35,709 nt of DNA from Bacteriovoracia bacterium (lineage in GTDB: Bacteria > Bdellovibrionota > Bacteriovoracia > Bacteriovoracales > Bacteriovoracaceae). Where the stretch lies: NCBI GenBank assembly GCA_046570105.1, contig JBKHVI010000027.1, forward strand, positions 1-35,709, given 5' to 3'. Under the pieces are notes generated by a model. The model was not told the DNA's origin. It did not search any database and saw nothing but the letters and a program-made list of their open reading frames with translations. Of this stretch, positions 23,301 to 35,709 are shown piece by piece. The position numbers and the translations under genes were made by a program. Position 1 is the stretch's first letter. Every line of letters begins with the position of its first letter.

Positions 23301-26300
23301 TTTAGTAACAAACGTCTTTGATCTTCCACGTAAGTATTTTGATGTCCGTGAAAAAGATATGGTGGCCTCACCTGGAGTGGTCAGGTCAGACATTCGTATT
23401 CGGACTTGGATCACACCAGAGTGGATTGATGCCAGGTTTGTGGCCGGCAATATTAATTCAGGTAACATGCGCTATAAGGGCCTTCCTGATCAAGCAGTCG
23501 TTAGCTCACAACATGATCTTTCAACCCTCTCATCAGGGATTATTCCGACGAATTCGAGTTATGAAATCCGATTCAAGCACCTCACGCTTGTCACAGGAAA
23601 AGTTAAAGTTCGAAACTCCTACTCAACTTCAACTCAGAAAATTAAGCCGATTCGCCAAGTCACGTGGGAGTCAGTCTTTCCGCCAGATTTGCAGGCCCCA
23701 GTCTATCTTCAAAATAAAAAAGAATCGCCTTATGGTGAGGGCTGGCAGTTAAACTTCACTAAAACCATTCTTAATCCTGGAAGCGATCGGGTTTTGGTTG
23801 AAAATGAAAATGGTGGAGTGGCCGTTTATGCGATTAAGAACGTCGTGCAAAACCTTGCGTATGACGAAAAGGGTATTGAAGCCTTTGGTTCAGATGGAGG
23901 GAATGTTTATTTTGTTAACTCAGAGAATAACCTCTTTCAATATTCTGATGGTGCGACAAATCTCATCAATCCACTTCCTCGTTACTCTGGACAAGTGGGT
24001 ATCAATGCGTCTTGGTATCATGGCTATAGTCGAAACTGTGTTAAGTCTGGCTGGAGTGGGTGCCGTAAATATGAATACACTTACCGCTATACCTGTGAAA
24101 AATATAATGCTCCATTTGATACAGGGCGAACCACGCAGAGCTTAAGTGTCAAAAACGGTTCAGTCCATTTACTGGATGGGCTAGGTGCTGTGTTTGAGTC
24201 ATCGTCTGAACTTCCAATTGCAGGACAGATGGGGCTTCCTGCTAACCTTAAAACGGCAACCAAAGCAAGTTCTGGCCCATCAATTGTCTCTCACTGTACC
24301 AATGTGACAGGTGAAGCTTGTTCGACTGTGAAAGAGAATCGCTCATTTTATGTCGTGAGAATAAAGAGTCGTCCAAAAAATCAAGTGGGCTACTGTAATA
24401 CAGCGACCTGCTATTCTGGAACTTGCTCACCACGCACATGGCTCACTGGTTCTGGGGCAGTCCCTCAAATAGGCTTTTCAGATGGCCCGCTGTCATCAGC
24501 AAAATTTAATAAGCCCTATGATTTTGTCAGCGGTAATCGTGAAGGCACTTTCTACGTAACAGATTATGGTAATAACATTGTCCGCTTTGTTGATACAGTC
24601 TTAGGGCAAGTAAGCACTGTAGCCGGAAATCGCTCTACTACAGACAGCGGTGACGGTGGCTTTGCCACAAGTGCTTCAATGTATCACCCTCGCGGCGTCG
24701 CCGTTGATTTAGATGGTAGCTTCTATGTGTCTACTGAGAAAGGTTATATCCGCAAAGTAGGCGTCGATGGTCGCATAACTACTTTTGCTGGTAAACCAAC
24801 CACGGCTGGCGGTGTCCTCGCTGATACGACTGATTTTGAGTCGATGGCGCTCAAAAATCCAAGTGGGCTAGTGCTAGATAAAGTGAATCAATTCCTTTAT
24901 GTCGCCGATACAGGCCATAACAGAATTATGCGCTTGAACCTTAATACCAAGCTTGCGCAAGTCGTCGCCGGAAATGGCACTTGTGTTGTAGGTGATACTC
25001 AAGAAGGAAAAGTCGGGCTTGAGATTTCACTTTGTGGCCCGGAGCGAATTGCTTTGGATGGTAATAACAATCTTTTGATTCTAGATAAAGTGAACAAGAG
25101 AATCCGTCGTGTTAATTTCACATCACCTGAAGATGGTCTTTTGAATTTTCAGCCTTTTGCTAAAGACAATACCATGCTTTACAAAAATCAGGCGGGAGAG
25201 TTCGTTCTTTCATATCGTGATGGCAGTCAAACACTCTTTAACAAAGATGGACAGCAGATTGAAACATCAGACCGCACGGGCAGAGTTCATCGCTTTAGCT
25301 ACAACGAAGACAAACAACTGACTAAAGTTCGCTTCCCCACTAATCAAGAGCTAGAGCTTGAGTATGCCGGTGGTCGTTTATCACAAATCATTGATCCAGC
25401 AGGCCGCATCACTCAATTCGTAAATGAAGACGGAAGAATTGGCCAAGTCATTTATCCTGACAACTCAGTTCGTGAGTTCAATTACCAAGAGGATGGGATT
25501 CTCACCGAAGAAAAAGACCAACTTGGTTATGCCACAAGCTACGAGTTAAACAATTTCAAACGCCTCAAGGTCATTCATCGTCCAGACAATACCACGATTC
25601 AGATTAGCGATGCACTTTCTCAGAGTTTGCACCAAGGGGAAGATGCAGGTGAACAAGAGCTGAAGAGCTTTAAGGGCGAGCTGAATAAGTTGCAAGATAT
25701 TATTCGCGATGCCAAAGGTTACGAGACAAGTTTCAGTCGAGACACCAATGGCTATGTTGACACGATTACGGACTCGCAAGGAAGAGTGACAAAGGTTGAG
25801 CGTGACACTGAGGGGCGTCCAACGAAGATCATTAACTTCGATGAAACTTTTAGTACAATGGCGTATAATTCATTTGGCGATCTAGTCCAACACTATAATT
25901 CTTCTTCAAATAGCTCTGAGTCTTTTGAGTATAACAGTAGTGGTAGTTTAATAAAGTACACAAATTCAATGGGCCAAGTTAGGACTGCAATCTATGATTC
26001 AGAAACGGGACTGCTTATTGAGGAGCGTGATTATTTAGGACAAATAAGTCGCAAAACTTATAATACTTTTGGTCTGGTAGCTTCTCAAACCAACCCTAAT
26101 AACGAAACCTCTCAATTTAATTATAATGAGTATGGGAACCTCGTGCAGGTGACTTCACCTAAAAATGAATCGGTACAATTTTCAAGAGATGCAAGTGGCA
26201 ATATCATTTCAAAAACGGATTCAAATAATCATTCAGTAAATTACTCATTCGATCTACTCAATAGGATTTTGTCTGTTCAGACCGCTAAAAATTTAACAAC

Positions 26301-28461
26301 AAGCTATAAATACTCTCTACGAGGTGATCTCGTTGAAATTATCGATCCTGCCAATAACAAGACCCAATTTTTTTATGACAGTATGGGGCGAACTAGCAAA
26401 AAGATATCTCCCTTAGGACAAGTCTATCAACTCTCATATGATGAAAATGGAAATGTTGCACAGGAGATTGATCCTATTGGTAGCTTAAAGAGCTTCAGCT
26501 ACGATGCGAGTAATCGATTGATAAAGAAGATACTGCCAGATGATATTTATGAATACACTTTTAATGAAAAAGGACAAATGATCTTTAGTAAAAATAATTC
26601 ATCAACCATTGCACTTAGTTTCACAGAGATTCTTGGAAGTGAAAAGGTTGCTAGCATCCTGATTGGAGGGCCTCAAGCGGTAGCCTTGGAAAGTGTACAT
26701 GTCTATGATGTTCTAGGAAGAAGAACCGAACTTCAGACTTCTGTCGGAACTTGGACGACATATTATGACGCTAATGGAAGGGTATCGACAATTAACGGGG
26801 CATTTGGTGATAATTATTTAATGGGATTTGATTCTGTAAATCGATTGAAAAATATCTCTAGGCCAGGAGGAGTTCAAAGCTTGATTAGTTTTGATGCCGC
26901 TTCGGCTGTGACTCAGATTTTGCACAAGAGAAGTGATGCCTTATTGAATGGTTTTAATTATCAACAAGATGGGTCAGGCAATAGGACGCAGATAGACTCC
27001 ATGCTTGGGACCACTGTTCTCACATATGATCAAGACGATCAGTTAACTGGCGTGAATGCCCCTTATGGCGAAGAAAGCTTCCAATATGATGAACTTGGGA
27101 ATCGAGTTATTGATAGTGATGGAGTCTTCAGTTTTGAGCAGAAAAAGTATCGAATGATTGAGGATATGGGATTCATCTACGGTTATGATGCAAACGGGAA
27201 TTTGATAACGAAACAGAGCAAAGGCTTAAACGGTGCAGTTTATAACTTTAAATACACATCTGAAAATCAACTCAAATCAATACAAATTTTTGAAGCGGCA
27301 GAACTGAAGAAAGAACTTCATTTTTATTACGATGTGCTAGGGCGAAGAATTAAAAAGCAAGTTATCGATCATAATGAAGCTCAAAAATCATTTACTCATA
27401 AATTTGCTTATGACGGTCAGGATGTCATCGCAGTCTTTAATGAAAATGACGAGTTGATGGCAAGATACACGCATTCAGGAATGCGCATGGATGATGTACT
27501 TGGCGTAGAAGTGACAAATGCTGGAGTGGACGGTGGAATGGCAAATAGCTCGGGTAAGTTCTACTTTCTGAAAGATGTCATGGGGACTATTACGGATATC
27601 ATCGATGCTGCTGGAGTAGTTGTACAGCGATACTCCTATAGTGCCTTTGGTAGATTACTCAAGACGATGGGTGCGGATGGGATGGAGCTTGCGAGTCCAA
27701 TTATCAAAACTCACTACGCGTTCACAGGAAGAGAGCTTGATGAAGAAAGTGGACTATACTACTACAGAGCACGTTATTATGATGCCCACAGTGGAAGGTT
27801 TATGCAGGAGGATCCGCACTCTGGTGATATAAGAAATCCAATTACAGTAACGAATAGATATGTTTACGGGGGAAACAACCCTGTGATGAATGTCGATCCG
27901 AATGGACGCTTCTTCTTTGCCGCAATCATTATTGGAGCAGTTTTAGGTGGTGTCATTGCTGATGCAAATGGAGGGAACTTTCTTGAAGGTGCCTTGATTG
28001 GTGCAGCTGCTGGAGGGGTTGGAGCTTTTGTTGGTGGAGCTGTTGGACTTGGAGTAGGTAACGCTGTTTCGGGTGCTATCGGTGGTACGGCTGGCTCATT
28101 TTTTGGTGGCGTTGCGGCTTTTGGAGCAGGAGCCTTTGTAGGTGGTTCGGTGGGAGGACTTGCGGGAGGTGTTGTTGGGGCCGGTATTGGTGCTGTAAAT
28201 GGACGAGGAGCCGAGGAAGGTCTTTTCTATGGACTTGGTCTAGGCTTCTCTGTCGGGGCAATTACAGGCGGATTAGCTGGGCTTGGCTCCTATGCATACG
28301 GGGACTTCTTATTTAATGATGTTGACTTCGGTATAGATGCCTTTGGGATTAAAACGAATTCAATTCAAAGATACATTTATAATGAAGCTTATGGCACAGC
28401 TTCAGGACTATCAAAAATTTTAAAAGGTCCAAATGGGACTGAATACTTGCCGGTATTTTAG
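20353..28461 (+). CDS. Giant secreted teneurin-like RHS/YD-repeat protein (Ig-like repeats, carboxypeptidase-regulatory-like, ZU5-like, NHL propeller, YD shell, RHS core, Gly-rich tip)
   Basis: Sec signal; D.AGN...D..PP Ig repeats; GVVKDKDDNPLPGVTV; LEVPAGA...LEPSG..F...SHFS; GDGG.A..A...PRGVAVD and LYVADTGHNRI (NHL); many YD..G repeats; YYYRARYYD..GRF..EDP...NNP..NVDPNG. Confidence 0.93.
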   Translation: MFNQYVYILMLASFVSSAWGRPDFLREKYLEVEIIESPQEVIELDTTHIIKGYLCLKHNIGHSNNCRMLAPEDLSKYEIKFTYPHATSDITQNVQIIEEENRFRFEASLPALTPGIQSPRFGAYLFQKGHTGHGLHVAYQKILAHIERFEQLKDKLHWKGKNSYEKHLKHLRSIAQKLQKKIHAQDARWAERSIPLQLKNFVAAPSSWMVSTASWSIEAEAQLGTGFKGEKSWLDLAFNPYDDVDDEWKVEVKQNDQLIFEQTGFKSDLHQRILLSGDFVGESEAEIKIWGKNAKKGKWHWESVFKRDLKIFRIEDLVAPTYKSFLPLPGRYVGRDVPTFSLVLEDLKGRMDRLTVDGDLVEDGGNRVSLKNTFSFETSQNTLVADIHGSQNGSDLFSITGMPQGVPEGFYNLQMLVKDFAGNQAPEASWRFIVDRTPPIIAYPNVPSIKSNDESYELEINVTDATDVLIQVFHNGVFVGETTQKIDGMAIDLVDGANFVRLTAIDEAGNMSELNYPPIFLDNLPPEIEDINIEDGLLIRTASFNIQGSAIEELGSILVNGQEVDFESTGTTFSFDISLYAEGEQTLTLELFDLAGNSITYEYQIDFLLRLVDGALIRVEKINEDQMKIMGFPGATGPNFPLEIDAGWFNSTELTANDDGSFEVILDAFDEAIVTATYPLNGRQESALAKFKFDTTLAGVVKDKDDNPLPGVTVTIQSSEQETVTDEAGRFYISDPALGDQTLIIDGTTIPVEVTQGTREFSQIAYNVSLGSRQQNILERPIYLSPKMLDGTETIITNGASVSVSSSHAPGVSLEVPAGAAVFPGGGNSGSINIIEIPGSRTSIEVPDEAIPDTVFALEPSGLEFKERVHLTLPNPNEFPEGTELVILSRNSESGYWEIDGSATVTGPDMIETKPGQGISHFSEVFAAPLGMEIKKFADGDKPRIDTLDGAVSTQISLPSFKVLGQDITPSLTYNSNWAYPNVLVTNVFDLPRKYFDVREKDMVASPGVVRSDIRIRTWITPEWIDARFVAGNINSGNMRYKGLPDQAVVSSQHDLSTLSSGIIPTNSSYEIRFKHLTLVTGKVKVRNSYSTSTQKIKPIRQVTWESVFPPDLQAPVYLQNKKESPYGEGWQLNFTKTILNPGSDRVLVENENGGVAVYAIKNVVQNLAYDEKGIEAFGSDGGNVYFVNSENNLFQYSDGATNLINPLPRYSGQVGINASWYHGYSRNCVKSGWSGCRKYEYTYRYTCEKYNAPFDTGRTTQSLSVKNGSVHLLDGLGAVFESSSELPIAGQMGLPANLKTATKASSGPSIVSHCTNVTGEACSTVKENRSFYVVRIKSRPKNQVGYCNTATCYSGTCSPRTWLTGSGAVPQIGFSDGPLSSAKFNKPYDFVSGNREGTFYVTDYGNNIVRFVDTVLGQVSTVAGNRSTTDSGDGGFATSASMYHPRGVAVDLDGSFYVSTEKGYIRKVGVDGRITTFAGKPTTAGGVLADTTDFESMALKNPSGLVLDKVNQFLYVADTGHNRIMRLNLNTKLAQVVAGNGTCVVGDTQEGKVGLEISLCGPERIALDGNNNLLILDKVNKRIRRVNFTSPEDGLLNFQPFAKDNTMLYKNQAGEFVLSYRDGSQTLFNKDGQQIETSDRTGRVHRFSYNEDKQLTKVRFPTNQELELEYAGGRLSQIIDPAGRITQFVNEDGRIGQVIYPDNSVREFNYQEDGILTEEKDQLGYATSYELNNFKRLKVIHRPDNTTIQISDALSQSLHQGEDAGEQELKSFKGELNKLQDIIRDAKGYETSFSRDTNGYVDTITDSQGRVTKVERDTEGRPTKIINFDETFSTMAYNSFGDLVQHYNSSSNSSESFEYNSSGSLIKYTNSMGQVRTAIYDSETGLLIEERDYLGQISRKTYNTFGLVASQTNPNNETSQFNYNEYGNLVQVTSPKNESVQFSRDASGNIISKTDSNNHSVNYSFDLLNRILSVQTAKNLTTSYKYSLRGDLVEIIDPANNKTQFFYDSMGRTSKKISPLGQVYQLSYDENGNVAQEIDPIGSLKSFSYDASNRLIKKILPDDIYEYTFNEKGQMIFSKNNSSTIALSFTEILGSEKVASILIGGPQAVALESVHVYDVLGRRTELQTSVGTWTTYYDANGRVSTINGAFGDNYLMGFDSVNRLKNISRPGGVQSLISFDAASAVTQILHKRSDALLNGFNYQQDGSGNRTQIDSMLGTTVLTYDQDDQLTGVNAPYGEESFQYDELGNRVIDSDGVFSFEQKKYRMIEDMGFIYGYDANGNLITKQSKGLNGAVYNFKYTSENQLKSIQIFEAAELKKELHFYYDVLGRRIKKQVIDHNEAQKSFTHKFAYDGQDVIAVFNENDELMARYTHSGMRMDDVLGVEVTNAGVDGGMANSSGKFYFLKDVMGTITDIIDAAGVVVQRYSYSAFGRLLKTMGADGMELASPIIKTHYAFTGRELDEESGLYYYRARYYDAHSGRFMQEDPHSGDIRNPITVTNRYVYGGNNPVMNVDPNGRFFFAAIIIGAVLGGVIADANGGNFLEGALIGAAAGGVGAFVGGAVGLGVGNAVSGAIGGTAGSFFGGVAAFGAGAFVGGSVGGLAGGVVGAGIGAVNGRGAEEGLFYGLGLGFSVGAITGGLAGLGSYAYGDFLFNDVDFGIDAFGIKTNSIQRYIYNEAYGTASGLSKILKGPNGTEYLPVF

Positions 28462-28468
28462 GAAGTTT

Positions 28469-29116
28469 ATGCACAATATTTTGCTAGTACTTTGTTTGAT
28501 TGTTTTGAGTTCATGTGCGACCTCTACAGAAAAAGCGTCTATTTATAGACCAATGGGTATAGCCCAGAAGAAGACTTTTTCAGTCTTTTTCAAAGCTCGA
28601 TTTAACTCTCAGATCAATACAAAGTATGCTTCACTCCTACCGTCAGATGTAACGAGTGATCTTGAGAATTGTTCAGAGGTTCGACCGGGGGATTCTAGGG
28701 ATGGTTATCTTAAATCTGTGTTGTGTTTGACGTACTTCAATTTACTTAAGTCATACGACTTAAGATTAGTTCAATCAGAGGAAGAGTTTAGGAGTAAAAA
28801 AACGTTTAGTATCGAGTATGTAATTTCTGAAGATCAAGAGATAGCAAATAAAATCTGGTCTTGGTCTAATTTATTGACTTTAACTATAATACCTTATTGG
28901 GGACAACGAGAATTCAAACTGGCTATTTTGGAACAACAAGGAGATCAAGTCATTTCTGAGAGAGTGTTTAATGCTCATTTCACGGAGTATAGGAGTATTA
29001 TTCTACTTCCAGCAATGCCATTTACTGACGGCTACAAGATAGGAACTAGAAAAGCTGTGTCAAATTTACTTTCACAGGTGGATGAGCACTTCCAGAATTT
29101 TGATAAGAAGAAATAG
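28469..29116 (+). CDS. Lipoprotein, candidate cognate immunity/partner protein
   Basis: AGGA SD; LSSC lipobox; 7 nt after the RHS stop; hydrophobic LLTLTIIPYW and IILLPAMPF segments. Confidence 0.7.
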   Translation: MHNILLVLCLIVLSSCATSTEKASIYRPMGIAQKKTFSVFFKARFNSQINTKYASLLPSDVTSDLENCSEVRPGDSRDGYLKSVLCLTYFNLLKSYDLRLVQSEEEFRSKKTFSIEYVISEDQEIANKIWSWSNLLTLTIIPYWGQREFKLAILEQQGDQVISERVFNAHFTEYRSIILLPAMPFTDGYKIGTRKAVSNLLSQVDEHFQNFDKKK

Positions 29117-29230
29117 TTGGCCAAAAAATGGCCAACAGTTTTCAAAAATTTCCAAAATTTCGCCAAAAAGTGCCTGTGGGTCTAACTCGACAACTAACCC
29201 TTCATTCGTAAGATTGTCGTAATGAGACCC
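29116..29230. repeat. Cluster of short inverted/direct repeats, candidate recombinase binding (att) region
   Basis: GTTGGCCA-AAAAA-TGGCCAAC (29116-29136); CAAAA(A)TTT repeats; TCGTAA twice 11 bp apart; GGGTCT..CGACAA / TTGTCG..AGACCC imperfect inverted repeat. Confidence 0.45.
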
Positions 29231-29240
29231 ATTTTGAGAG

Positions 29241-29271
29241 AGAAAATAAAGGGGAAGACTAAGCCTTCCCC
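29241..29271 (-). terminator. Intrinsic terminator of the recombinase operon
   Basis: Minus strand GGGGAAGGC-TTA-GTCTTCCCC followed by TTTATTTTCT, 10 nt after the stop codon. Confidence 0.85.
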
Positions 29272-29281
29272 GATGTGTTTC

Positions 29282-30301
29282 TTATTCAAAAGGATTTGTG
29301 ATCGCTTTCGTAATCATTTCTTTGGCACTTTCTCCATAAAGTCTTCTGGTATCCGAGAGAACCCCATGCCCTAAGATATATTGAAGTTCCTTCATATCTC
29401 CACCACGAGATAGAAAATTCACCGCAAAAGAATGTCTGAGATCAAGTGGTGTCCAGTCTCCTTTATAGAGATTGGCGAGCTTAAATTCAGTGACAAGGCG
29501 ATGAAATTTATTCGTGGTAAAGGGTTCATTGTAGTATGTCCAAAAAAGTACACCTGTTTTCTTAGGCTTGTTTTTAAGTAGGGTAACAAGTTCTTCAGAG
29601 ATGGGAAGAGTTCTTTCTTTACCAGCTTTATTCTCGACAAAGTGAATAGTGCCTTTTTCCAAGTTTACATCATTCCATTTTAAATCGACCACCTCCTTGT
29701 TTTTAGAGGCGGTTTCAGAGATGAGTTTAATCATTGGATAGAGATAGCCGGGGGAATAAGACTTGATGGAGGTTAAAAGATCTTCAATATGAGAAGAAGT
29801 GAGGATGTTTCTTGACTTCACCGAAGGGACATACTTTTGGTAATAAATCTTACTCAAGGGTGATTCTGAAATAATATCCTTATCCACAAGAAAGCTAAAA
29901 AGCGTGTCAACTTGACACTTAAGTCCTCTCATTGTGATGTCCCTAAGTTTGTATTCCTTTTGCACCTGATCGAGCCATACTTTGAAGGAGTCAGAGGTGA
30001 GTTCACTCACTTGATATTCTCCAAAGGTACTGACAAAATCCATGATGTGAATTTTGCTTTTTGCAAAAGCGTTGCGAGGCTTTTCATCAATAAAAATCAT
30101 GATGAGTTCTTCAAGAGTTAATTCTTGATAATGACTTCGATGTTTACGACGGTACTTGATTTCCATTTCTTCTTTATAACCTTTGGCCAGCTCTCGACTG
30201 GTAAAGGCCTTACGCACTTTCCTTTTTGAGAGTGGATGGGTAAAGCTGGTTAAAAATGTTCCATCCTGGATAGGATAGATGTTTACTTGAAATTCATTCA
30301 T
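29282..30301 (-). CDS. Tyrosine recombinase paralog with a partly degenerate active site
   Basis: ETASKNKEV (catalytic R replaced by K), PLDLRHSFA (H replaced by L), LGH and RLY retained; GAGG SD before ATG 30301. Confidence 0.88.
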   Translation of the reverse strand: MNEFQVNIYPIQDGTFLTSFTHPLSKRKVRKAFTSRELAKGYKEEMEIKYRRKHRSHYQELTLEELIMIFIDEKPRNAFAKSKIHIMDFVSTFGEYQVSELTSDSFKVWLDQVQKEYKLRDITMRGLKCQVDTLFSFLVDKDIISESPLSKIYYQKYVPSVKSRNILTSSHIEDLLTSIKSYSPGYLYPMIKLISETASKNKEVVDLKWNDVNLEKGTIHFVENKAGKERTLPISEELVTLLKNKPKKTGVLFWTYYNEPFTTNKFHRLVTEFKLANLYKGDWTPLDLRHSFAVNFLSRGGDMKELQYILGHGVLSDTRRLYGESAKEMITKAITNPFE

Positions 30302-31352
30302 GGTTTTCCTCTTTTGTGTTTTGGGTGTTGTCGTAAGGTGATGGACACTCAATATCTTGTGCTTGAAGCTGCCCATAAAGGTTGACTGTCACATCAATTG
30401 ATCTGTGCCCTAAAATGGCCTGCAGTTGATACATCTTTCCACTTTTCTTTAAGAAGTTATAAGCGAAGGAGTGACGCAGACAATGACTGGCCCAATCTTT
30501 TCCATTGGGAAAGAAGGCCTTGAATTTGGTGATATGCCTTGTGAGGGCCGAGCGCCCAATTCTTTCACCTTCTTCATTCAGAATGAGTGGGATTTTCTCA
30601 TGCTTTGCAAGTTGTTTTTCCAGAATTGTCTTTAAAACTGGAGAAATTTTTACGAATCTTTCGTGGGAGTTTTTCGTTTCCCGAAAGTGAATCAAATCCG
30701 TTTCAAAATCAATATCATCTCGATTAAGTTTGACGATCTCTCCACGTCTTGCCCCTGTGTGGGCGGCAATCGCAAGGAAGGGATATAAAAGGTCGGGTGA
30801 AAAAGTCTTGGCACTTTCTAGGACATGTAAGACTTCGTTAACAGACATGACGATACGCTTGCGGCGAGGGTTGTCATACCGCTTAAACTTGATTCGGTCT
30901 AACGGATTTTGTTGTAAATAATCTTCATGATGGAGATACTCAAAAAAGCGGTAAAATTGCGTCTTTATTCCGTTCATTGTTCGTTCACTAAGGTTTCCCT
31001 CCGTCTTTCTACTTTGAAACCACTCTTTCAAGTCGTTAACAGTGAGTTCGCCAATTCGGTAAAGGCCAAAAGCATCAATGAACGATTTGAAGTGATTTTT
31101 TCTTGATCTTACCAGTGATGCTGGAAAAATTTCGAGATACAGTTTCATGGCCTCTGATACTCGAACATCGCTAAAAACATTGACTCCCTTGGAGTTCACT
31201 TTAGTCTCTATACTTTTTTTGAAGTCTTTGGCGTCTTTGAGTGTGGCAAATCGCTTACGCTTTCTTTTCCCTGTCTTGGGGTCAAAGAACTTGACCTGAA
31301 TGTGTCCTGAACTCATTTTGTGAATTTTGACATTAAATTGATTTAAATTCAT
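30294..31352 (-). CDS. Tyrosine recombinase/integrase with canonical active site
   Basis: HTGARRGEI, ETKN, HCLRHSFA, LGH, NLY; N-terminal arm-binding-like segment; start 31352 (GGAG SD, ATGA overlap with the upstream stop). Confidence 0.93.
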   Translation of the reverse strand: MNLNQFNVKIHKMSSGHIQVKFFDPKTGKRKRKRFATLKDAKDFKKSIETKVNSKGVNVFSDVRVSEAMKLYLEIFPASLVRSRKNHFKSFIDAFGLYRIGELTVNDLKEWFQSRKTEGNLSERTMNGIKTQFYRFFEYLHHEDYLQQNPLDRIKFKRYDNPRRKRIVMSVNEVLHVLESAKTFSPDLLYPFLAIAAHTGARRGEIVKLNRDDIDFETDLIHFRETKNSHERFVKISPVLKTILEKQLAKHEKIPLILNEEGERIGRSALTRHITKFKAFFPNGKDWASHCLRHSFAYNFLKKSGKMYQLQAILGHRSIDVTVNLYGQLQAQDIECPSPYDNTQNTKEENHE

Positions 31353-32560
31353 GCGCTCATCTCCAAAAGTTCGTGGGATGATGGAAGATGATGCTCTTTC
31401 ATCATGTGTTTTTGGGTACGATCTCGAAGCCACTGATCTAATTTTTCTGGTCCTATGAGATACTTCTTTTTGACTCCGACATTTACATAGGGAAACGTCG
31501 GGTCTGATTTAATGTGGTGATAAATTAACCACTGACTGATGCCATACATACGGGCCACCTCCTTGATGGAATAGAGTCGTTTTGTGGGAGTTTGCTCCAC
31601 ACTTGTTGGCCAACATAATGTCGGCCGTTCAGTCAATGGCCGCTCTGATGGCCCTGAATTTTTTGGGGCACGATCTTTAGGATAAGGGAGTCTAAGCTTG
31701 TCGGGATTCCGGATGACAAAGAGTCCTCTAAGCTTTTTGGTTTCCGTTTTGTTCAGGCCCAGAATATAAACGTACTTGTGCTTTCTAGGTAAGCTGCGCT
31801 TAGGGATGCTATTCTGATACTCCCTAGCTTTTTTTTTCAGTTGTTGGGCAATGTCAGAAGGTACTTTGTCCCAAAAAATCTTATCCCGATGACTCCATCC
31901 ATTTTGCCAACTAATGCCAAGCTCCTGAGCATAAAGCTTAAAGCTAGTGGTCTTTCTGAATACACGGTCACTAAATCCCTTGTCTGAAAACTTCTTATCA
32001 AAGTATTCAAACCGTGCCCCAGAATCTTGTCCCAGATAGATAAAGTTACAGGCCTGATAAATGGTGCCGAGTTCCCGTGCTTCCGTGTCCGAATAGGCCG
32101 TAAAGAATCTATAAGGGGTATTCTTCACCATCCAACGGATAGAAAACATCACAAGGGCCGAAGCCAGATTCTTGGGACTCCATGAAATACACGCCCCACG
32201 GCTGATGAGCTTTTCTTTGTCCCGATATTCTTTACCCAGAAGATTAGAAAAGGCGTTAGGTGTGGCCATGACAATGACTCCAGCAAGCTTGCCTTGATAG
32301 GTGGCAATAAATCTGTGAGTCGGGCGGTGTGGCATCTTGCCAAGCCACTCATGCCTTAGAATGAAATCTTTAACTTTCTGGCACGTTTCTTTATCTTCCT
32401 TGGAAACAAACTGAAATTCAAAATCAGAAACTCGAAGCGTGTCGATCTCAGCGTGAGTCAGTTCTGCCTCTTCCAAGTCTTGAGCGAGATTTTTCTGCCT
32501 GATCTCGTATTGCCAGCAATGAGAGGCCGTGAACTCGCGAGAGTTGAGTTGGTGTTTCAT
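31349..32560 (-). CDS. Mom-like (GNAT-fold) DNA modification protein fused to a C-terminal excisionase-like HTH
   Basis: FILRHEW, GKLAGVIV, ISRGAC...PKNLASAL...SIRW, AYSD...LGTIYQACNFIYLG resemble phage Mu Mom family motifs; C-terminal LYSIKEVARMYGIS..LIY..I...P..VG...I....LDQWL is HTH_17/Xis-like. Confidence 0.75.
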   Translation of the reverse strand: MKHQLNSREFTASHCWQYEIRQKNLAQDLEEAELTHAEIDTLRVSDFEFQFVSKEDKETCQKVKDFILRHEWLGKMPHRPTHRFIATYQGKLAGVIVMATPNAFSNLLGKEYRDKEKLISRGACISWSPKNLASALVMFSIRWMVKNTPYRFFTAYSDTEARELGTIYQACNFIYLGQDSGARFEYFDKKFSDKGFSDRVFRKTTSFKLYAQELGISWQNGWSHRDKIFWDKVPSDIAQQLKKKAREYQNSIPKRSLPRKHKYVYILGLNKTETKKLRGLFVIRNPDKLRLPYPKDRAPKNSGPSERPLTERPTLCWPTSVEQTPTKRLYSIKEVARMYGISQWLIYHHIKSDPTFPYVNVGVKKKYLIGPEKLDQWLRDRTQKHMMKEHHLPSSHELLEMSA

Positions 32561-32594
32561 ATAAATGTCCTTAGATTTTTATTTAATAGAGAGA

Positions 32595-32747
32595 AACTGT
32601 GAGAATCGCAGTTAGTCCCTCTTTATGAGTCTTGAATGAAAAGAGAATTTTCTCTTTGATTTTAAAATCTTAGTGAATGTCTTGGTTTTTATTCCCTGCT
32701 GACTCATGTATCCCGCTCGCAACGGTGACGGGTCAACATACTCATGA
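32595..32747. other. Intergenic cluster of four hairpins/palindromes, candidate oriT or single-strand origin
   Basis: AACTGTGA-GAA-TCGCAGTT; AAAGAGAA-TT-TTCTCTTT; GATTTTAAAATC; TCATGTATCCCGCTCGC-AACG-GTGACGGG...ATACTCATGA. Confidence 0.4.
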
Positions 32748-32748
32748 A

Positions 32749-33495
32749 TTAGTTAATCGCTAGCACCTCCTTTTGATGATTGATAAAGGAAGTCTTTGTT
32801 TTCAAAGTGAGAAGGTCATCCAGTAAACAGTAAAAGAACTTTGGAGTTAAGTTTCCTTTGAACTTCTTTTCTGCCTGCATGACCTTATTTTGAATACCGG
32901 AAGTCTTGCTGATAAATAGCACTGCCTTAACTTCATCAGTCCCATAGTATTTGTGCATCAGTTGATCGTAGCGTTTAGCGAACTTTGCTGAAGCTTCATA
33001 TTCGAGAGGGAAATAAAAAGTGTCATCTCCGAGATTCGTCTTGATGATGCCATCAGAATTGAGTTTTCTAATTTCTTTGATTATGTGTTCATCATCAAAG
33101 AGTCCAGATTGAAGCACATTTTCGCTTAAGGCTGATTCAACTGACTTGAAGTTTGATAAAATTCGCTTGATCTCCAAGACTCCCAGATCATGGGGAATTG
33201 ATGAACTTTTCCTTTGTATGCGTTTCATTTGGGTTTTATCCCCGATGAACTTTACAAGGGACTTCTTGCTTAGAGAGTAAATCAGTTTGTTACAGGATTC
33301 TCTCAGGTAAGTGACTTCAAGAAACCCATATTTGATAAGTTTATCCAATCGTCTATGCACAGCTTGCTTACTGGCTTGATTAAAGATGTCCTCCCGTAAG
33401 TGGCGAATACTCGCCACTTTGTTAATAAACAGATAACGGAAAAGCTTTTCATCTCGCTCAGTAATGATGAGAGTGTTTTTCTGGGCCTTAAGCAT
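32749..33495 (-). CDS. Replication-relaxation (Replic_Relax) family protein
   Basis: N-terminal wHTH ITERDEKLFRYL...RRLDKL...Y.L; IPHDL; SDG and PLEYE PD-(D/E)xK-like core; coupled to the FtsK gene. Confidence 0.8.
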   Translation of the reverse strand: MLKAQKNTLIITERDEKLFRYLFINKVASIRHLREDIFNQASKQAVHRRLDKLIKYGFLEVTYLRESCNKLIYSLSKKSLVKFIGDKTQMKRIQRKSSSIPHDLGVLEIKRILSNFKSVESALSENVLQSGLFDDEHIIKEIRKLNSDGIIKTNLGDDTFYFPLEYEASAKFAKRYDQLMHKYYGTDEVKAVLFISKTSGIQNKVMQAEKKFKGNLTPKFFYCLLDDLLTLKTKTSFINHQKEVLAIN

Positions 33496-35014
33496 TTAAT
33501 ACATCCTGTTTAGTTAAAGATGGTTTCTTGACTGGAACCGAGGACGATTCAGAAGGTGTTGCAAATCCCATAGGTTGATTTAGAGTCTTTTTTTCTTCTG
33601 CATAATCTTGGGCGATCAATTGAAGCTCTGGCTTCATGGAATTTGATGAAAGAAAGGGAGTCTGGACTTCAATTTCATCATGTCCGAATTGCCAGATGCC
33701 TCGCCCAGGTGTGGCAGGAAGATGAGAAGCCTTAGCGTTTCCGAGAACGCGGACTGAACCTTCAGGAGTGTTGAGCTTGAAGCACATTCTTCCAGATATG
33801 TTTTCCTGCATTCTTGTGTCGATAGTTTCCTTAGAGACCTTTTGGGTAGCTAGGATGAGATGAATAGCAGCAGCTCGTCCAAGCTTAGCGATACTTTCGG
33901 TTAAGTCCCTTGCTTCGCTAACCAGCTCATAATCAACACTATCTTTACGGGCCTGACCATAGAGGACAGAGGCCTCATCAATACCGATAACGATGCGATC
34001 AAAAGGATGTTTGTCTGGATTGATTTGCTCTAGGCCTTTCTTTTCAAGATAGGTGAAGCGGTTATCCATTTCCTTTTTAACGAGTTTTAAAGTTATGAGA
34101 GCATCCTCAATGCTTTTTGAAACCCTGACGTTTGAAAGTTGAGAAAATTCTCTAAACTCAAGCCCACCTTTTAAGTCCACGAGATACATTTGTAGATGGT
34201 TGGTGGATTTAAGAAGGCCTAAGAGCATTTGTTTAAAGAACTGTGACTTTCCTCCACCTGTGGCACCAGCAATGAGCATATGAGGGAGCTTGGAGATTTT
34301 GCCAATGACTGTTTCTTTTTTTGATTCACCAATGAGAAAGGATTCACTTTGATCTAAGCTCCCTTGAAGTTGTTCAAAGGTCACATATTCAGGTAGAAAC
34401 TTAGTGGAGAGAATGATCTCCACATACTTAGGATTTTTAAGGCGGTTGATTTCTTCAATGTCTTTACCGAAGGCAGATTGAAGCTCGTCTTGTTTTGCTT
34501 TGAGCTTTTCGGCTCCAATGCCTGATACATAAACGATAAGTCTTGTTCGGTGCTCATCTAATCGAGTGATGCTATCAATCTCGGCGGTTACGTCTTTAGC
34601 ATTTTTAAGTCCAATGGAGTCGAGAGCGTGTTGGTAATCCTTGAAGCGGAAATACGGAATAATGCCAATGATCCAGAGAAGAACCGTTGAGATAGGAACC
34701 GCAACCAGAGAAAAGTTTTTCTGAAATCCTAGATCATGGATTGCTTGCAGTCTTTTAAGAGGAAAGAGCCATGATGAGAGATCATGGAGAAGTTGCAAGT
34801 GCCACTGATAGTGGATGATTGTCATTGTGATGAGAGAAACAAGGCTGATTCCCATCAGTAATACTTTAAAGCTTCTGAGTTGCTTCAAACCGAACCAAAA
34901 AGAATGGGTGAAGAAAACGAAGATAGGTCCTAGCTGGATGAACGCTTCATTAAGAATTTCTCCGATCATCTTGTCGGTGCTGGATGGCGTATTGGTCTTT
35001 TTTGTTTCGTTCAT
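33488..35014 (-). CDS. FtsK/SpoIIIE-family membrane ATPase (TcpA-like coupling protein/translocase)
   Basis: N-terminal TM helices; PHMLIAGATGGGKS (Walker A), VDLKGG, IDEA (Walker B), GRAAAIHLILATQK; AGGAG SD. Confidence 0.92.
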   Translation of the reverse strand: MNETKKTNTPSSTDKMIGEILNEAFIQLGPIFVFFTHSFWFGLKQLRSFKVLLMGISLVSLITMTIIHYQWHLQLLHDLSSWLFPLKRLQAIHDLGFQKNFSLVAVPISTVLLWIIGIIPYFRFKDYQHALDSIGLKNAKDVTAEIDSITRLDEHRTRLIVYVSGIGAEKLKAKQDELQSAFGKDIEEINRLKNPKYVEIILSTKFLPEYVTFEQLQGSLDQSESFLIGESKKETVIGKISKLPHMLIAGATGGGKSQFFKQMLLGLLKSTNHLQMYLVDLKGGLEFREFSQLSNVRVSKSIEDALITLKLVKKEMDNRFTYLEKKGLEQINPDKHPFDRIVIGIDEASVLYGQARKDSVDYELVSEARDLTESIAKLGRAAAIHLILATQKVSKETIDTRMQENISGRMCFKLNTPEGSVRVLGNAKASHLPATPGRGIWQFGHDEIEVQTPFLSSNSMKPELQLIAQDYAEEKKTLNQPMGFATPSESSSVPVKKPSLTKQDVLNA

Positions 35015-35062
35015 GGTTTTACTCCTGTGTTGAACGGTTTTGTTTTTGGTTAAGACCCTAAG

Positions 35063-35078
35063 GCAAAGACCGTGCCAA
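35063..35078 (-). promoter_or_regulatory. Sigma54 (RpoN) -24/-12 promoter for the ftsK-relaxase operon
   Basis: Minus strand TTGGCACGGTCTTTGC is an exact match to TGGCACG-N4-TTGC, 48 nt upstream of the ftsK ATG and correctly oriented. Confidence 0.82.
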
Positions 35079-35094
35079 TTTTGAAAGTGATAAA

Positions 35095-35107
35095 AATAAA
35101 TGAGTTA
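35095..35107 (+). promoter_or_regulatory. IHF-like binding site between promoter and palindromes
   Basis: AATAAATGAGTTA versus WATCAANNNNTTR (one mismatch) in an A-tract context. Confidence 0.4.
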
Positions 35108-35147
35108 CAAGTGCTCAAAATAATTTTAGAAAATTTGAAGCAAAAAA

Positions 35148-35233
35148 TGTGACGAGGTCTCGTCACAAAAACTCAAAAAATAAATAAAATCAGAATCATT
35201 TTAGCGATTTAGAAATCTGACGAAGTTTCGTCA
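35148..35233. promoter_or_regulatory. Two related 16-bp palindromes, candidate enhancer (UAS) or operator sites
   Basis: TGACGAGGTCTCGTCA (35150-35165, symmetry extends to 35148-35167) and TGACGAAGTTTCGTCA (35218-35233). Confidence 0.7.
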
Positions 35234-35469
35234 TAAACTTTGGAAAAGGCCTACTGGTGCGACTAATTTCTGAAAGTTTTAAAAGACTTAAAGTACCTTT
35301 TGAGGTGGCGAGAGTCCGTCACTTTGAGGTCCTAACTGCGCAATCAAGTAACAGTAAGTGTGCATTTGGGTAACAGTAGAGGGATTGCTCCGTGCTTTTC
35401 CTTGGCCTGTAACCAGTTGAAAGCAGGTACTCCGTTGTGAGTTCAAGTTATTGAAAAGAAATGCCGATA

Positions 35470-35498
35470 TTGACAATGGTGCTATATGTGATACCATT
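35470..35498 (+). promoter_or_regulatory. Sigma70 promoter of hicA with overlapping inverted repeat (candidate HicB operator)
   Basis: TTGACA (35470-35475), TG-n-TACCAT (35489-35497), AATGGT-N12-ACCATT (35475-35498). Confidence 0.7.
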
Positions 35499-35503
35499 AT
35501 TTA

Positions 35504-35709
35504 ATGAGTATAGATGAAGCTTTGGAAGCTCTCGCGAGTGATACAAATATCAAGTTTAAAGACCTTCTCAAAATTTGCGAGAATTTTTTTGAAGGCCCGA
35601 AGATAAAAGGAAGTCATCATATCTTCAAAACTCCATGGCAAGGCCAGCCATGGGTGAACATTCAGAAGGATGGAAACAAGGCCAAGAGCTATCAGGTGAA
35701 ACAAGTTCG
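35504..35709 (+). CDS. hicA: HicA-family toxin, truncated by the window end
   Basis: Not in the ORF track. MSIDEALEALASDTNIKFKDLLKICENFFEGPKIKGSHHIFKTPWQGQPWVNIQKDGNKAKSYQVKQV; GSH motif and NIQ..G.AK.YQVKQ. Confidence 0.88.
   Translation, partial: MSIDEALEALASDTNIKFKDLLKICENFFEGPKIKGSHHIFKTPWQGQPWVNIQKDGNKAKSYQVKQV

Follow-up and report, generated by a model that had tools for sequence, protein, structure and literature searches.

Gene content and boundaries of the element

The window, by which we mean the whole stretch of DNA analysed here, is an entire contig (C27) of 35,709 nt and carries the following genes and features:

20353..28461, plus strand: main rhs gene (2702 aa), with an RHS_repeat match (3.4e-26) in its last 702 residues, running towards the integrase end of the element
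27787..27815, plus strand: Rhs core-end segment of 29 nt coding for HSGRFMQEDP, repeated (28/29) at the start of an orphan Rhs tip
28433..29116, plus strand: open reading frame for a lipoprotein-like protein of 227 aa after the rhs tip, putative immunity gene
29108..29169, no strand: att-like repeat at the integrase end, from local alignment to a copy beyond hicB
29251..29271, minus strand: intrinsic terminator after Int2, with a 9-bp stem, six GC pairs and a T-run
29282..30301, minus strand: Int2, degenerate tyrosine-recombinase paralogue (PF00589, 1.4e-22; alignment to XerD)
30294..31352, minus strand: Int1, tyrosine integrase with the full R-K-H-R-H-Y set (PF00589, 2.6e-20; PHROG 1 integrase, 4e-50)
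31349..32560, minus strand: 403-aa protein in which a Mom-like domain (about residues 60-300) is fused to an HTH_17 excisionase-type domain (329-381)
32749..33495, minus strand: 248-aa winged-helix plus PD-(D/E)xK nuclease, a distant Replic_Relax/MOB_C-like putative relaxase (homologs, structure models)
33488..35014, minus strand: TcpA/FtsK-like membrane ATPase of 508 aa, putative coupling protein (PF01580 FtsK_SpoIIIE, E 5e-21)
35063..35077, minus strand: sigma-54-type promoter motif TGGCAC-N5-TTGC, 63 nt before the ATPase start codon
35148..35234, no strand: two palindromes, GTGACGAGACCTCGTCAC and ATGACGAAACTTCGTCAG, 152 and 220 nt upstream of the ATPase gene
35504..35709, plus strand: hicA-like gene cut by the contig end; its end and hicB are supplied by a sibling contig

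As ORF calls and translations confirmed, the five genes from the ATPase to Int2 are co-oriented on the minus strand, and hicA is divergent from them. A preliminary description had regarded these five genes as mostly translationally coupled, in agreement with the overlaps read from the coordinates: the ATPase stop overlaps the start of the 248-aa gene by 8 nt (33488-33495), the Mom-Xis stop and the Int1 ATG at 31352 share an ATGA, the Int1 stop overlaps the Int2 ATG at 30301 by 8 nt, and one gap of 188 nt separates the nuclease gene from the Mom-Xis gene. The clean terminator reported there was likewise recovered, reading from 29271 to 29251. The sibling contig (L022), which is 99.97% identical to the window over 3821 nt, extends it by 1713 nt, in which lie the end of hicA, hicB, a lipoprotein gene and an orphan Rhs tip that passes the TIGR03696 cut-off of 32.5 bits with 43.6; hence the sequence beyond 35709, where hicB and the other att site were to be looked for, yielded hicB, a second att-like repeat beyond it and the Rhs tip. 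The element is about 7 kb long, from position 29108 to roughly 430 nt beyond the window end, and comprises in order the genes for Int2, Int1, Mom-Xis, the nuclease, the TcpA-like ATPase, HicA and HicB.

The repeat-rich segment noted earlier next to the terminator is real and proved to be an att-like site. The direct repeat 29108-29169 aligns to 36080-36136 with a score of 31, against 17 +/- 2.4 for shuffled sequences, and none of 500 shuffles reached 31. Its core motif TGGCCRR-N4-TGGCCRR (29118-29135) is the sole such site in the window, where 0.13 would be expected, and a contig of run X11 matches the window only at 29118-29150, with flanks that differ on both sides. An integrase with a full catalytic set is thus accompanied by direct repeats at both element ends, although these copies are only about 75% alike, which suggests that integration was not recent or that the crossover core is short. 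Family searches found no T4SS genes between the repeats, and a scan of 18 flank proteins (the last 702 aa of the Rhs protein plus the products of the 17 larger ORFs between 1 and 20 kb) revealed ordinary chromosomal genes and Rhs, as expected from the earlier statement that no T4SS genes are visible in the window.

Upstream of the ATPase gene, the sigma-54-type motif is the only match in the window (0.09 expected). The motif appears 60-68 nt upstream in two relatives (L031 and L042) and is present in three of the four upstream regions examined. The same palindrome occurs in three copies upstream in L031, and GTGACGAGACCTCGTCAC and ATGACGAAACTTCGTCAG may represent an enhancer, an operator or part of oriT. 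The identification of HicA was partly sustained: its own match stays below the cut-off (E 0.0065 truncated, 0.0024 for the full-length protein from the sibling contig; 18.4 bits against 27), but the HicB gene directly after it on that contig is well above (PF05534, 47 bits against 21). A toxin-antitoxin pair lies opposite the integrase end in all three elements with both ends defined, namely HicAB, a RelE-like pair and BrnT/CopG.

A TcpA-like ATPase adjacent to a winged-helix nuclease

The PF01580 match confirmed the FtsK-like gene of the preliminary description. The closest solved structure to the ATPase is the pCW3 coupling protein (6o1w; E 1.9e-23, residues 126-455), with FtsK at 6e-11 and no TrwB/VirD4 chain among the solved-structure matches listed. 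Two hydrophobic segments at about 48-69 and 100-124 precede the Walker A motif at 250. With membrane segments at its N-terminus and an FtsK/SpoIIIE domain that is nearer to TcpA than to either FtsK or VirD4, the protein would be of the TcpA type, as judged from its sequence. The usual association of TcpA with MPF_FA systems of Firmicutes and MOB_T or MOB_M relaxases was not found here, since the host belongs to the Bdellovibrionota and the neighbouring gene is MOB_C-like. The host assignment, proposed earlier, agrees with homologs named Bacteriovoracaceae or Halobacteriovoraceae. A TraB-family translocase of the AICE type was also considered for the ATPase and rejected (NF041214 plasmid_TraB, 30.6 bits against a cut-off of 800).

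The neighbouring nuclease had been described as a Replic_Relax protein. This assignment stands at the level of the family, but not for the window's own protein, which gives no match to PF13814 even at E 10; among its close homologs 9/21 match (best 3e-6), and the orthologs in L010, L012 and L016 pass the cut-off of 25.3 bits with 25.4, 34.6 and 26.7 bits. Structure models reached a pLDDT of 88.9 for the whole protein and 91.2 for the C-domain. The modelled N-domain resembles MarR-like proteins (Z up to 11.2), and the C-domain model resembles the restriction nucleases BsaWI (Z 8.2; 139 residues aligned, rmsd 3.8), N.BspD6I (7.7) and FokI (6.8), most of the top matches being restriction-type nucleases with moderate Z values. 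Residues H102, D103, E125, N126, D148 and E165 are invariant in 15 diverse sequences. The protein would therefore combine, according to the models, the HTH and the PD-(D/E)xK fold with conserved acidic residues by which MOB_C-type relaxases are recognised.

Two unequal recombinases and a putative Mom-Xis fusion

Both genes described as twin recombinases match PF00589, and their products are 31% identical. All six catalytic residues are present in Int1 and in 10/10 of its A-type orthologs. Int2 has Lys in place of Arg I and Leu in place of His II but retains Lys, Arg II, His III and Tyr; at the Arg I position its eight B-type orthologs carry K (six), T (one) or S (one), and Tyr is kept in four of them. 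Neither Int2 nor any of these eight has the full R-K-H-R-H-Y set. Of the two-subunit recombination proposed earlier, the two recombinase genes remain, but the second is a degenerate paralogue, and for this reason recombination by two subunits is unproven. A second recombinase that is conserved but catalytically degenerate, together with a sigma-54 promoter, points to an unusual control of excision and transfer.

The Mom-Xis fusion is supported within a single ORF by a clear match of the Mom domain (PF25680, 48.3 bits against 27.1, 1.3e-12; PHROG 1384, 1.7e-19) and a weaker one of HTH_17 (PF12728, 4.9e-5, 24 bits against 27), located directly before Int1. Mom and HTH_17 are separate genes in L027, L031 and L044, where HTH_17 scores 28, 45.5 and 39.6 bits. 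Unfused Mom relatives with 44-57% identity occur in 43 IMG/VR contigs, and the three checked all resemble large phages.

Recurrence of the element and its link to conjugative elements

Mom-Xis was found in 0/10 genomes of the same genus and in 12/400 other Bdellovibrionota genomes, so that the objection that these might be syntenic core genes fails. The check on co-occurrence and order called for in the preliminary description showed the same gene order at 40-65% protein identity in metagenome contigs and other genomes. ATPase, nuclease, Mom(/Xis) and Int genes follow each other in L027, L029, L031, L042, L043 and L052, with shorter stretches of this order in L028 and L030. A second Int is present in L027 and L031, and twin Int genes in six of the nine genome loci L041-L049. 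In L042 and L045 both element ends carry the att motif; in L041 it is found at the integrase end, and in L052 at the end with the toxin-antitoxin genes. L041 is the only locus with a multi-site array, four att-like sites following one another next to Int2. A stricter form of the motif appeared in 2/101 family genomes, both times on element-bearing contigs. The ATPase and nuclease genes are decayed in L041 and L045 and replaced by Prim-Pol and AAA_25 genes in L048, indicating that the mobilization module is not fixed.

The same ATPase-nuclease pair is also found in larger elements. A TraC/VirB4-type ATPase and TrbI are encoded upstream of the pair in L009, L010, L012, L016 and L018, that is, in 5/7 loci with scanned ORFs (112/155 ORFs covered), and T4SS genes likewise precede it in L044. 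No PF02534 VirD4 above the cut-off was detected anywhere in G019 or G021, which carry clusters of T4SS genes with the pair. The host genome itself harbours a second element at the start of contig C30, with genes for TrbI, an ATPase of 491 aa that resembles VirD4, a 248-aa Replic_Relax-like protein, Xis and Int. Searches of the host assembly for VirB4/TraC were negative; this assembly is 87.8% complete, and its contig C30 begins inside a T4SS cluster.

A putative integrative mobilizable element at Rhs loci

Taken together, these data suggest that the window probably carries a member of a new family of integrative mobilizable elements (IMEs), about 7 kb long, which targets Rhs arrays. That the locus holds a distinct IME family had already been proposed, and this is supported by its non-core status, recurrent gene order, att-like ends and lack of internal T4SS genes; our literature search found no account of this module set, as the preliminary description had supposed. 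Points against the IME reading are the diverged att copies, the negative search for an empty site, circular junction or excision joint among assembled contigs of four runs, the negative VirB4/TraC search in the host assembly, the missing PF13814 match of the window's nuclease and the variable mobilization module, besides the opposite orientation relative to Rhs genes in L043 and the lack of a nearby Rhs gene in L045. Under our proposal, the operon would be read from a sigma-54 promoter needing a host activator. Int1, whose catalytic set is complete, would excise and integrate the element; the HTH_17 domain would serve as its directionality factor, and the degenerate Int2 would be a partner that is non-catalytic or half-active. 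An oriT, sited either within the 490 nt upstream of the ATPase gene or in the gap that follows the nuclease gene, would be cut by the winged-helix nuclease, and the membrane ATPase would dock the DNA to a helper's type IV secretion system; this helper is probably a related conjugative element of the phylum, where the same ATPase-nuclease pair follows T4SS genes. Going by their family names, the Mom-like enzyme would modify DNA against restriction, and HicAB would stabilise the element through addiction.

The element lies between the main rhs/immunity pair and the orphan Rhs module. The putative immunity role of the 227-aa lipoprotein-like product is suggested by its position; no Pfam family was found for it, and the gene is missing from 10/10 same-genus genomes. 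Rhs genes adjoin the element or its relatives in eight loci, and in three species, represented by the window with L022, by L042 and by L052, roughly 90 nt separate the att motif from the start of an orphan. Both observations would also suit a larger mobile unit of about 8.5 kb, reaching from 27787 to the orphan core-end and carrying a promoterless Rhs cassette (core-end fragment, tip CT1 and immunity gene), which would recombine with the conserved core-end of a resident rhs, fuse the incoming tip to the host rhs body and push the old tip downstream as an orphan. The 29-nt core-end repeat, found by blastn of the L022 extension against the window, brackets CT1, the immunity gene and the element; contigs of run X17 match CT1 (99.3%, with 5 differences in 712 letters) as well as the immunity gene and the Int2 junction, and carry a different Rhs-repeat-like sequence upstream of 27750; and contigs of other samples diverge from the window just upstream of the core-end, at 27730-27776. 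However, such loose ends may stem from paralogous rhs genes, and any pair of Rhs modules within an array should share a core-end stretch of 29 nt. If the 7-kb core is what moves, the conserved att motif should border it directly, and this is where it is found, inside the larger unit; L043, where the element has the opposite orientation relative to the Rhs genes, requires an extra assumption. We consider this larger shuttle unlikely.

It is less likely still that the locus is an immobile remnant, namely the end of a conjugative element whose T4SS genes were lost and which became fixed at the Rhs site. The order ATPase-nuclease-(Mom-Xis-Int) does equal the end of T4SS-bearing elements such as that of L044, the att copies have diverged, decayed versions exist in L041 and L045, and no empty site, circular junction or excision joint was seen when the assembled contigs of four runs were aligned. 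Nevertheless, the T4SS-less layout recurs with intact frames in several species and contigs at the identities given above, which argues for selection on the compact form; a conserved sigma-54 promoter stands immediately before the ATPase gene, in the place that T4SS genes would otherwise take, and the att motifs enclose exactly the compact gene set. Self-transfer by the FtsK-like ATPase alone, pumping double-stranded DNA as does TraB of actinomycete ICEs, with the 248-aa protein as a replication initiator or regulator, might draw on the proximity of the ATPase to the FtsK/TcpA branch rather than to VirD4, on the annotation of Replic_Relax for plasmid replication besides relaxation in the cited part of PMC3424549 and on a proposal, mentioned in a section of a review, that TcpA may move double-stranded DNA (PMC12857230), but is highly improbable given a diderm host, the poor plasmid_TraB score and relatives in which the pair is embedded at the end of T4SS operons.

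Returning to the mobilizable element, its family is found again and again inside Rhs toxin arrays, beside a conserved site, and a recombinase-bearing element at such loci may bear on how these arrays gain new parts. As a speculation to which we give little weight, such elements might be the missing vehicle of Rhs 'C-terminal displacement': a mobilizable, recombinase-bearing episome would land in Rhs arrays via the att site or core-end, bring or collect att-flanked cassettes (toxin tips, immunity genes, defence genes) and build orphan arrays in an integron-like manner, with the catalytically dead second recombinase as a site-choosing partner. If the element is transfer-competent, this question about the arrays is opened to test.

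Comparison with known systems

Like the MOB_C relaxases (TraX of pAD1, MobC of CloDF13) and PF13814 proteins, the window nuclease appears to join a winged helix to a PD-(D/E)xK domain; as with MOB_C genes, its gene adjoins that of a putative coupling protein, and its family has PF13814 matches. Unlike them, it misses the Pfam model, its partner is TcpA-like instead of VirD4, and it is a putative relaxase by sequence and fold. The ATPase shares with TcpA of pCW3 and the Tn916/ICEBs1 group the N-terminal hydrophobic segments followed by an FtsK/SpoIIIE domain; pCW3 TcpA is its best solved relative, over 330 residues, and in both cases the gene adjoins a relaxase gene, here a putative one. In the cited sections of a survey and a 2025 review, TcpA homologs are confined to Firmicutes and MPF_FA systems (PMC3548315; PMC12857230), whereas relatives of the window ATPase, TcpA-like by similarity, sit behind diderm TraC/VirB4, TrbI and TraV-type genes. 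TcpA-like ATPases that have a MOB_C-like nuclease as partner are found here both after T4SS genes of the diderm type and in mobilizable derivatives of such clusters.

The nearest layout is that of compact streptococcal IMEs, which, in the passages cited, run from coupling protein through relaxase and excisionase to tyrosine integrase (Coluzzi et al. 2017, PMC5357655; Guedon et al. 2017, PMC5704250). Both share gene order, compactness, the lack of T4SS genes and a coupling-protein gene of the FtsK-related TcpA type that immediately precedes the relaxase gene, a putative one in the present element; a toxin-antitoxin pair as stabiliser is described for IMEs in the same sources. According to the relevant section of PMC5357655, the partners of TcpA in streptococcal IMEs are always relaxases akin to rolling-circle initiators, never MobC, and MobC IMEs have VirD4 and serine integrases. 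The element described here thus differs in pairing a TcpA-like ATPase with a MobC-like nuclease, in its diderm Bdellovibrionota host and in the addition of a Mom-like domain fused to Xis, a degenerate second recombinase, a sigma-54 promoter and a Rhs-array target. The Mom-like protein shares its PF25680 and PHROG 1384 matches with Mom of phage Mu and phage Mom-like proteins, but it is Mom-like by sequence, resides in an integrative element and is fused to, or encoded directly before, an excisionase-type HTH. Finally, rAID-1 of Bacteroidales and integrons, as presented in the cited part of Ross et al. (bioRxiv 10.1101/471110), likewise have a Xer-like tyrosine recombinase beside an array of toxin-immunity cassettes with repeated intergenic sites; in contrast to these systems, the recombinases of the present element belong to a mobilizable element with a putative coupling protein and nuclease, and the arrays consist of Rhs tips.

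Gene organization and continuation beyond the contig end

The gene content and ends of the ~7-kb element, in which a minus-strand operon encodes an ATPase, a predicted 248-aa nuclease, a 403-aa Mom::Xis protein and two tyrosine recombinases (Int1 and Int2) and is accompanied by hicA-like and hicB genes, support its reading as a putative integrative mobilizable element (IME). The preliminary description had proposed a distinct family of such elements, a view that gains support from the recurrence of the gene set, its patchy distribution and the presence of an att motif (TGGCCRR-N4-TGGCCRR) at the ends. The genes preceding the element in the window are the following:

Window genes outside the element
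1-20 kb: chromosomal genes for SelO, YceI, a permease, histidine kinases, a radical-SAM protein, an enoyl-CoA hydratase, a cyclophilin, a pirin and a hydrolase
20353-28461: Rhs protein, 2702 aa, with an RHS_repeat match (3.4e-26) in the last 702 aa
Directly after the Rhs gene: lipoprotein-like gene (putative immunity gene), 227 aa, without a family match

The five co-oriented genes claimed previously were borne out, all of them being located on the minus strand with overlaps of 8 nt, ATGA and 8 nt and with a 188-nt gap separating the second and third genes, and the terminator described after the last gene was confirmed as a 9-bp stem. The host assembly consists of 131 contigs and is 87.8% complete, and since the window is the whole of contig C27, the element is cut by the contig end. 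A contig of another assembly titled uncultured Bacteriovorax sp. (L022, 5534 nt), which is 99.97% identical to window positions 31889-35709, extends 1713 nt beyond the window end. Inspection of the sequence past 35709 for hicB, cargo and the other att site, as had been suggested, revealed the remainder of hicA, hicB (PF05534, 47 bits), a 242-aa orphan Rhs tip whose first part is a short core-end (TIGR03696, 43.6 bits), a lipoprotein gene and a second att-like repeat. The metagenome contig L026 shows the same arrangement, and both contigs together place the element between the main rhs/immunity pair and the orphan module, which runs in the same direction as the main rhs gene.

Putative transfer module: ATPase and nuclease

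The 508-aa ATPase matches FtsK_SpoIIIE (5e-21) and has a Walker A motif as well as a pair of strongly hydrophobic segments near the N terminus. Among the solved structures listed, it comes closest to TcpA, the coupling protein of pCW3 (6o1w; E 1.9e-23, residues 126-455); FtsK reaches 6e-11, and no TrwB/VirD4 chain appears.

The 248-aa protein has no Pfam match even at E 10, and its family comprises 501 cluster representatives at E <= 0.001. Replic_Relax (PF13814) was reached by 9 of 21 close homologs, and the orthologs in three loci of other Bdellovibrionota genomes (L010, L012 and L016) score above the PF13814 cut-off. A confident predicted model (pLDDT 88.9) has a MarR-like winged helix at its N terminus (Z up to 11.2). 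Foldseek with the whole model gave nothing at E <= 0.001, the top match being FokI (2.2e-3), and the family sequence profile retrieved nothing below E 0.1 among solved structures. As winged-helix matches filled the whole-model search, the C-domain was folded alone (pLDDT 91.2), which returned mainly restriction-type PD-(D/E)xK nucleases with moderate Z scores in a consistent list, including BsaWI (8.2), AF1548 (8.1), the nickase N.BspD6I (7.7) and FokI (6.8). Residues H102, D103, E125, N126, D148 and E165 are invariant in 15 diverse orthologs. PF13814 is the Pfam counterpart of the MOB_C relaxases (PMC5357655), and Steczkiewicz et al. placed it in the PD-(D/E)xK superfamily (PMC3424549).

Mom::Xis fusion and the two recombinases

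The 403-aa protein combines a Mom-like domain (PF25680, 48.3 bits; PHROG 1384, 1.7e-19) with an HTH_17 domain scoring 24 bits, just below the cut-off of 27. Mom and HTH_17 are encoded by separate adjacent genes in L027, L031 (both metagenome contigs) and the genome locus L044, where the HTH_17 match is clear (28, 45.5 and 39.6 bits, respectively), so that the C-terminal part probably represents an excisionase-type gene that some lineages have fused to the Mom-like one. About 79 of the best 120 Mom::Xis homologs listed align over 89% or more of the query, which indicates that Bacteriovoracaceae-type metagenome bins commonly carry the fused form. Unfused Mom-like proteins of ~300 aa, 44-57% identical to the Mom domain, are present in 43 IMG/VR viral contigs; no other element gene was detected in these contigs at E <= 1e-5, nor any circular form of the element, and the three contigs checked resemble large phages encoding GroEL, endolysin, head protease or SbcD-like proteins. 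A prophage or satellite reading of the element itself was rejected, as it yielded no capsid, terminase or other structural matches.

Int1 has the full set of six tyrosine-recombinase catalytic residues, kept in 10 A-type orthologs. Int2 is 31% identical to Int1 and carries Lys in place of Arg I and Leu in place of His II. None of the eight B-type (Int2) orthologs has Arg at the Arg I position (Lys in six, Thr in one, Ser in one) or His at His II, and the hairpin Lys occurs in two and the Tyr in four. The position of the Int2 gene is conserved and its frame is open, and we read the protein as a probable partner of Int1 with no or reduced catalytic activity. The start regions of the Int2 (30293-30317) and ATPase (35006-35030) genes are 84% alike over 25 nt, a likeness that supports the downstream ATG as the true Int2 start.

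Element ends and the Rhs neighbourhood

Imperfect direct repeats immediately follow the stop codons of the lipoprotein gene (29108-29169) and of hicB, with an alignment score of 31 versus 17 +/- 2.4 for shuffled sequences, none of 500 shuffles reaching 31. In the repeat core, two TGGCCRR boxes 11 nt apart precede the sequence AGTTTTYAAAA. The att motif occurs once in the window versus 0.13 copies expected, and is present at both ends of two relatives, L042, whose proteins are 37-65% identical to those of the window, and L045 (11.3 kb), in which the repeat exceeds 80 nt; it also adjoins the second recombinase in L041 and an orphan Rhs start in L052. A stricter form of the motif was found in 2 of 101 family genomes, each time on an element-bearing contig, and was absent from every element-free genome among the 101. 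In sequencing run X11, one contig shares with the window only positions 29118-29150 (33 nt, the att core) and has other sequence on both sides, which is what a recombination site in another context would look like. A second bracketing repeat, a 29-nt core-end segment (28/29), has one copy within the main rhs gene (27787-27815) and the other at the orphan start. The lipoprotein gene and Mom-Xis are both absent from 10/10 same-genus genomes, and hence no empty site could be aligned. Contigs from runs X11, X14, X17 and X19, all four with zero cover of window 26000-27619, contained no circle or excision joints, a result to which we give no weight because contigs drop rare forms. A tRNA target was rejected, since neither tRNA nor tmRNA lies within the window.

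The element has Rhs genes or fragments as neighbours in the window (taken together with L022) as well as in L031, L041, L042, L043, L047, L048 and L052, and no Rhs gene was seen at L045. In the window, L042 and L048, a giant rhs gene is directed at the second recombinase, from which a single small gene separates it. The orphan start, preceded by a conserved leader, lies ~90 nt from the far-end att motif in the window, L042 and L052, and L043 shows the opposite orientation. In L041 (2000-7200), four att-like sites follow one another beside Int2 and divide the genes there into an Rhs tip plus a small gene, an AIPR-type (abortive infection) gene together with one for DUF1002, and a set of four small genes; this row could represent either an integron-like array or decayed elements accreted in tandem. 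Contigs of runs X11, X17 and X19 match the Rhs tip at >=99% and are unlike the window upstream of 27730-27776, so that the same toxin tip appears to be joined to other rhs bodies or paralogues elsewhere.

Distribution and conjugative relatives

Mom-Xis was detected in 0/10 same-genus genomes and 12/400 other genomes of the phylum (10/100 in the same family), a distribution at odds with the alternative of syntenic core genes raised in the preliminary description. A search for co-occurrence of the genes, as suggested there, showed that the compact form devoid of T4SS genes, with Mom(/Xis) and two recombinases, recurs in the metagenome contigs L027-L031 and in the genome loci L041, L042, L043, L045, L047, L048, L049 and L052. 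The mobilization part varies: L042, L043 and L052 have kept it whole, L041 and L045 have it in decayed form, and in L048 Prim-Pol and AAA_25/PriCT genes stand in its place. Defence-type genes were seen next to or inside relatives, namely an AAA_13 (PrrC/RloC-like) ATPase (L031:6481-8739) and an AbiGi-like gene (L045:11473-12279). Near-identical DNA was found in runs of 13 studies of hydrocarbon, aquatic, freshwater, soil and aquifer samples, an occurrence that shows the habitat of the organism and says nothing on mobility.

The ATPase and nuclease genes are adjacent in 7 of 11 loci from eight other genomes of the phylum. In an ORF scan covering 112 of the 155 ORFs of seven loci (L013, L015 and L019 being left out), 5/7 loci carry the pair immediately behind genes for a TraC/VirB4-type ATPase and TrbI, with TraV in one. 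Genes for a glycine-zipper lipoprotein, an excisionase and a recombinase of the tyrosine or serine type come after the pair. L044 has the complete series, T4SS - ATPase - nuclease - lipoprotein - Mom - Xis - Int. No VirD4 (PF02534) was detected above the cut-off genome-wide in G019 and G021, two genomes carrying T4SS clusters, in agreement with the FtsK/TcpA-like ATPase being the predicted coupling protein of these clusters. An FtsK/TcpA-like ATPase, not VirD4, stands behind TraC/VirB4, TrbI and TraV-type genes in L009, L010, L012, L016, L018 and L044.

Regulation and a possible helper

The sequence TGGCAC-N5-TTGC precedes the ATPase start codon by 60-68 nt in three of four elements (the window, L031 and L042, not L043), and it is the sole copy in the window versus 0.09 expected. 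Upstream of it, palindromes GTGACGA-N4-TCGTCAC appear twice in the window and three times in L031, L042 having TGCAAT repeats in their place. We infer a candidate sigma-54 promoter with enhancer sites, and the same region might harbour oriT. A toxin-antitoxin pair is located opposite the recombinases in 3/3 elements with both ends defined.

The start of another host contig (C30:1-7000) holds the tail of a second integrative element, encoding TrbI-like, glycine-zipper lipoprotein, VirD4/TrwB-like ATPase (491 aa), Replic_Relax-like 248-aa, SSB-like, Xis and Int proteins. By hhalign, its 248-aa protein is a relative of the nuclease family (probability 80%), and Int is followed by chromosomal genes, among them an fpg/mutM-like gene. 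C30 begins inside a T4SS cluster, and further VirD4-like genes are present in host contigs C64 and C13; this cluster tail and the VirD4-like genes make a putative same-cell helper plausible. VirB4/TraC was not found in the 87.8% complete host assembly with one protein query and three families. The C30 element could possibly act as helper or competitor of the window element.

Comparison with known systems

The preliminary description took this gene combination to be apparently undescribed, and our literature search, with subscription journals largely outside its scope, likewise found no description of the element family nor of Bdellovibrionota conjugative or mobilizable elements with these proteins. 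As far as searched, four features are apparently unreported: the pairing of TcpA-like and MOB_C-like proteins in a diderm, the Mom::Xis fusion, the degenerate second recombinase and the conserved att site inside Rhs arrays. Two reports (PMC5357655, PMC5704250) describe a compact layout of streptococcal IMEs, coupling protein - relaxase - excisionase - integrase, an order common to the present element, and state that in those IMEs TcpA never accompanies MobC. According to PMC3548315 and PMC12857230, TcpA homologs are reported from Firmicutes only, a statement with which the TcpA-like ATPases in Bdellovibrionota conjugative elements are at odds. The nearest analogue of recombinases beside toxin-immunity arrays is rAID-1 of Bacteroidales (bioRxiv 10.1101/471110).
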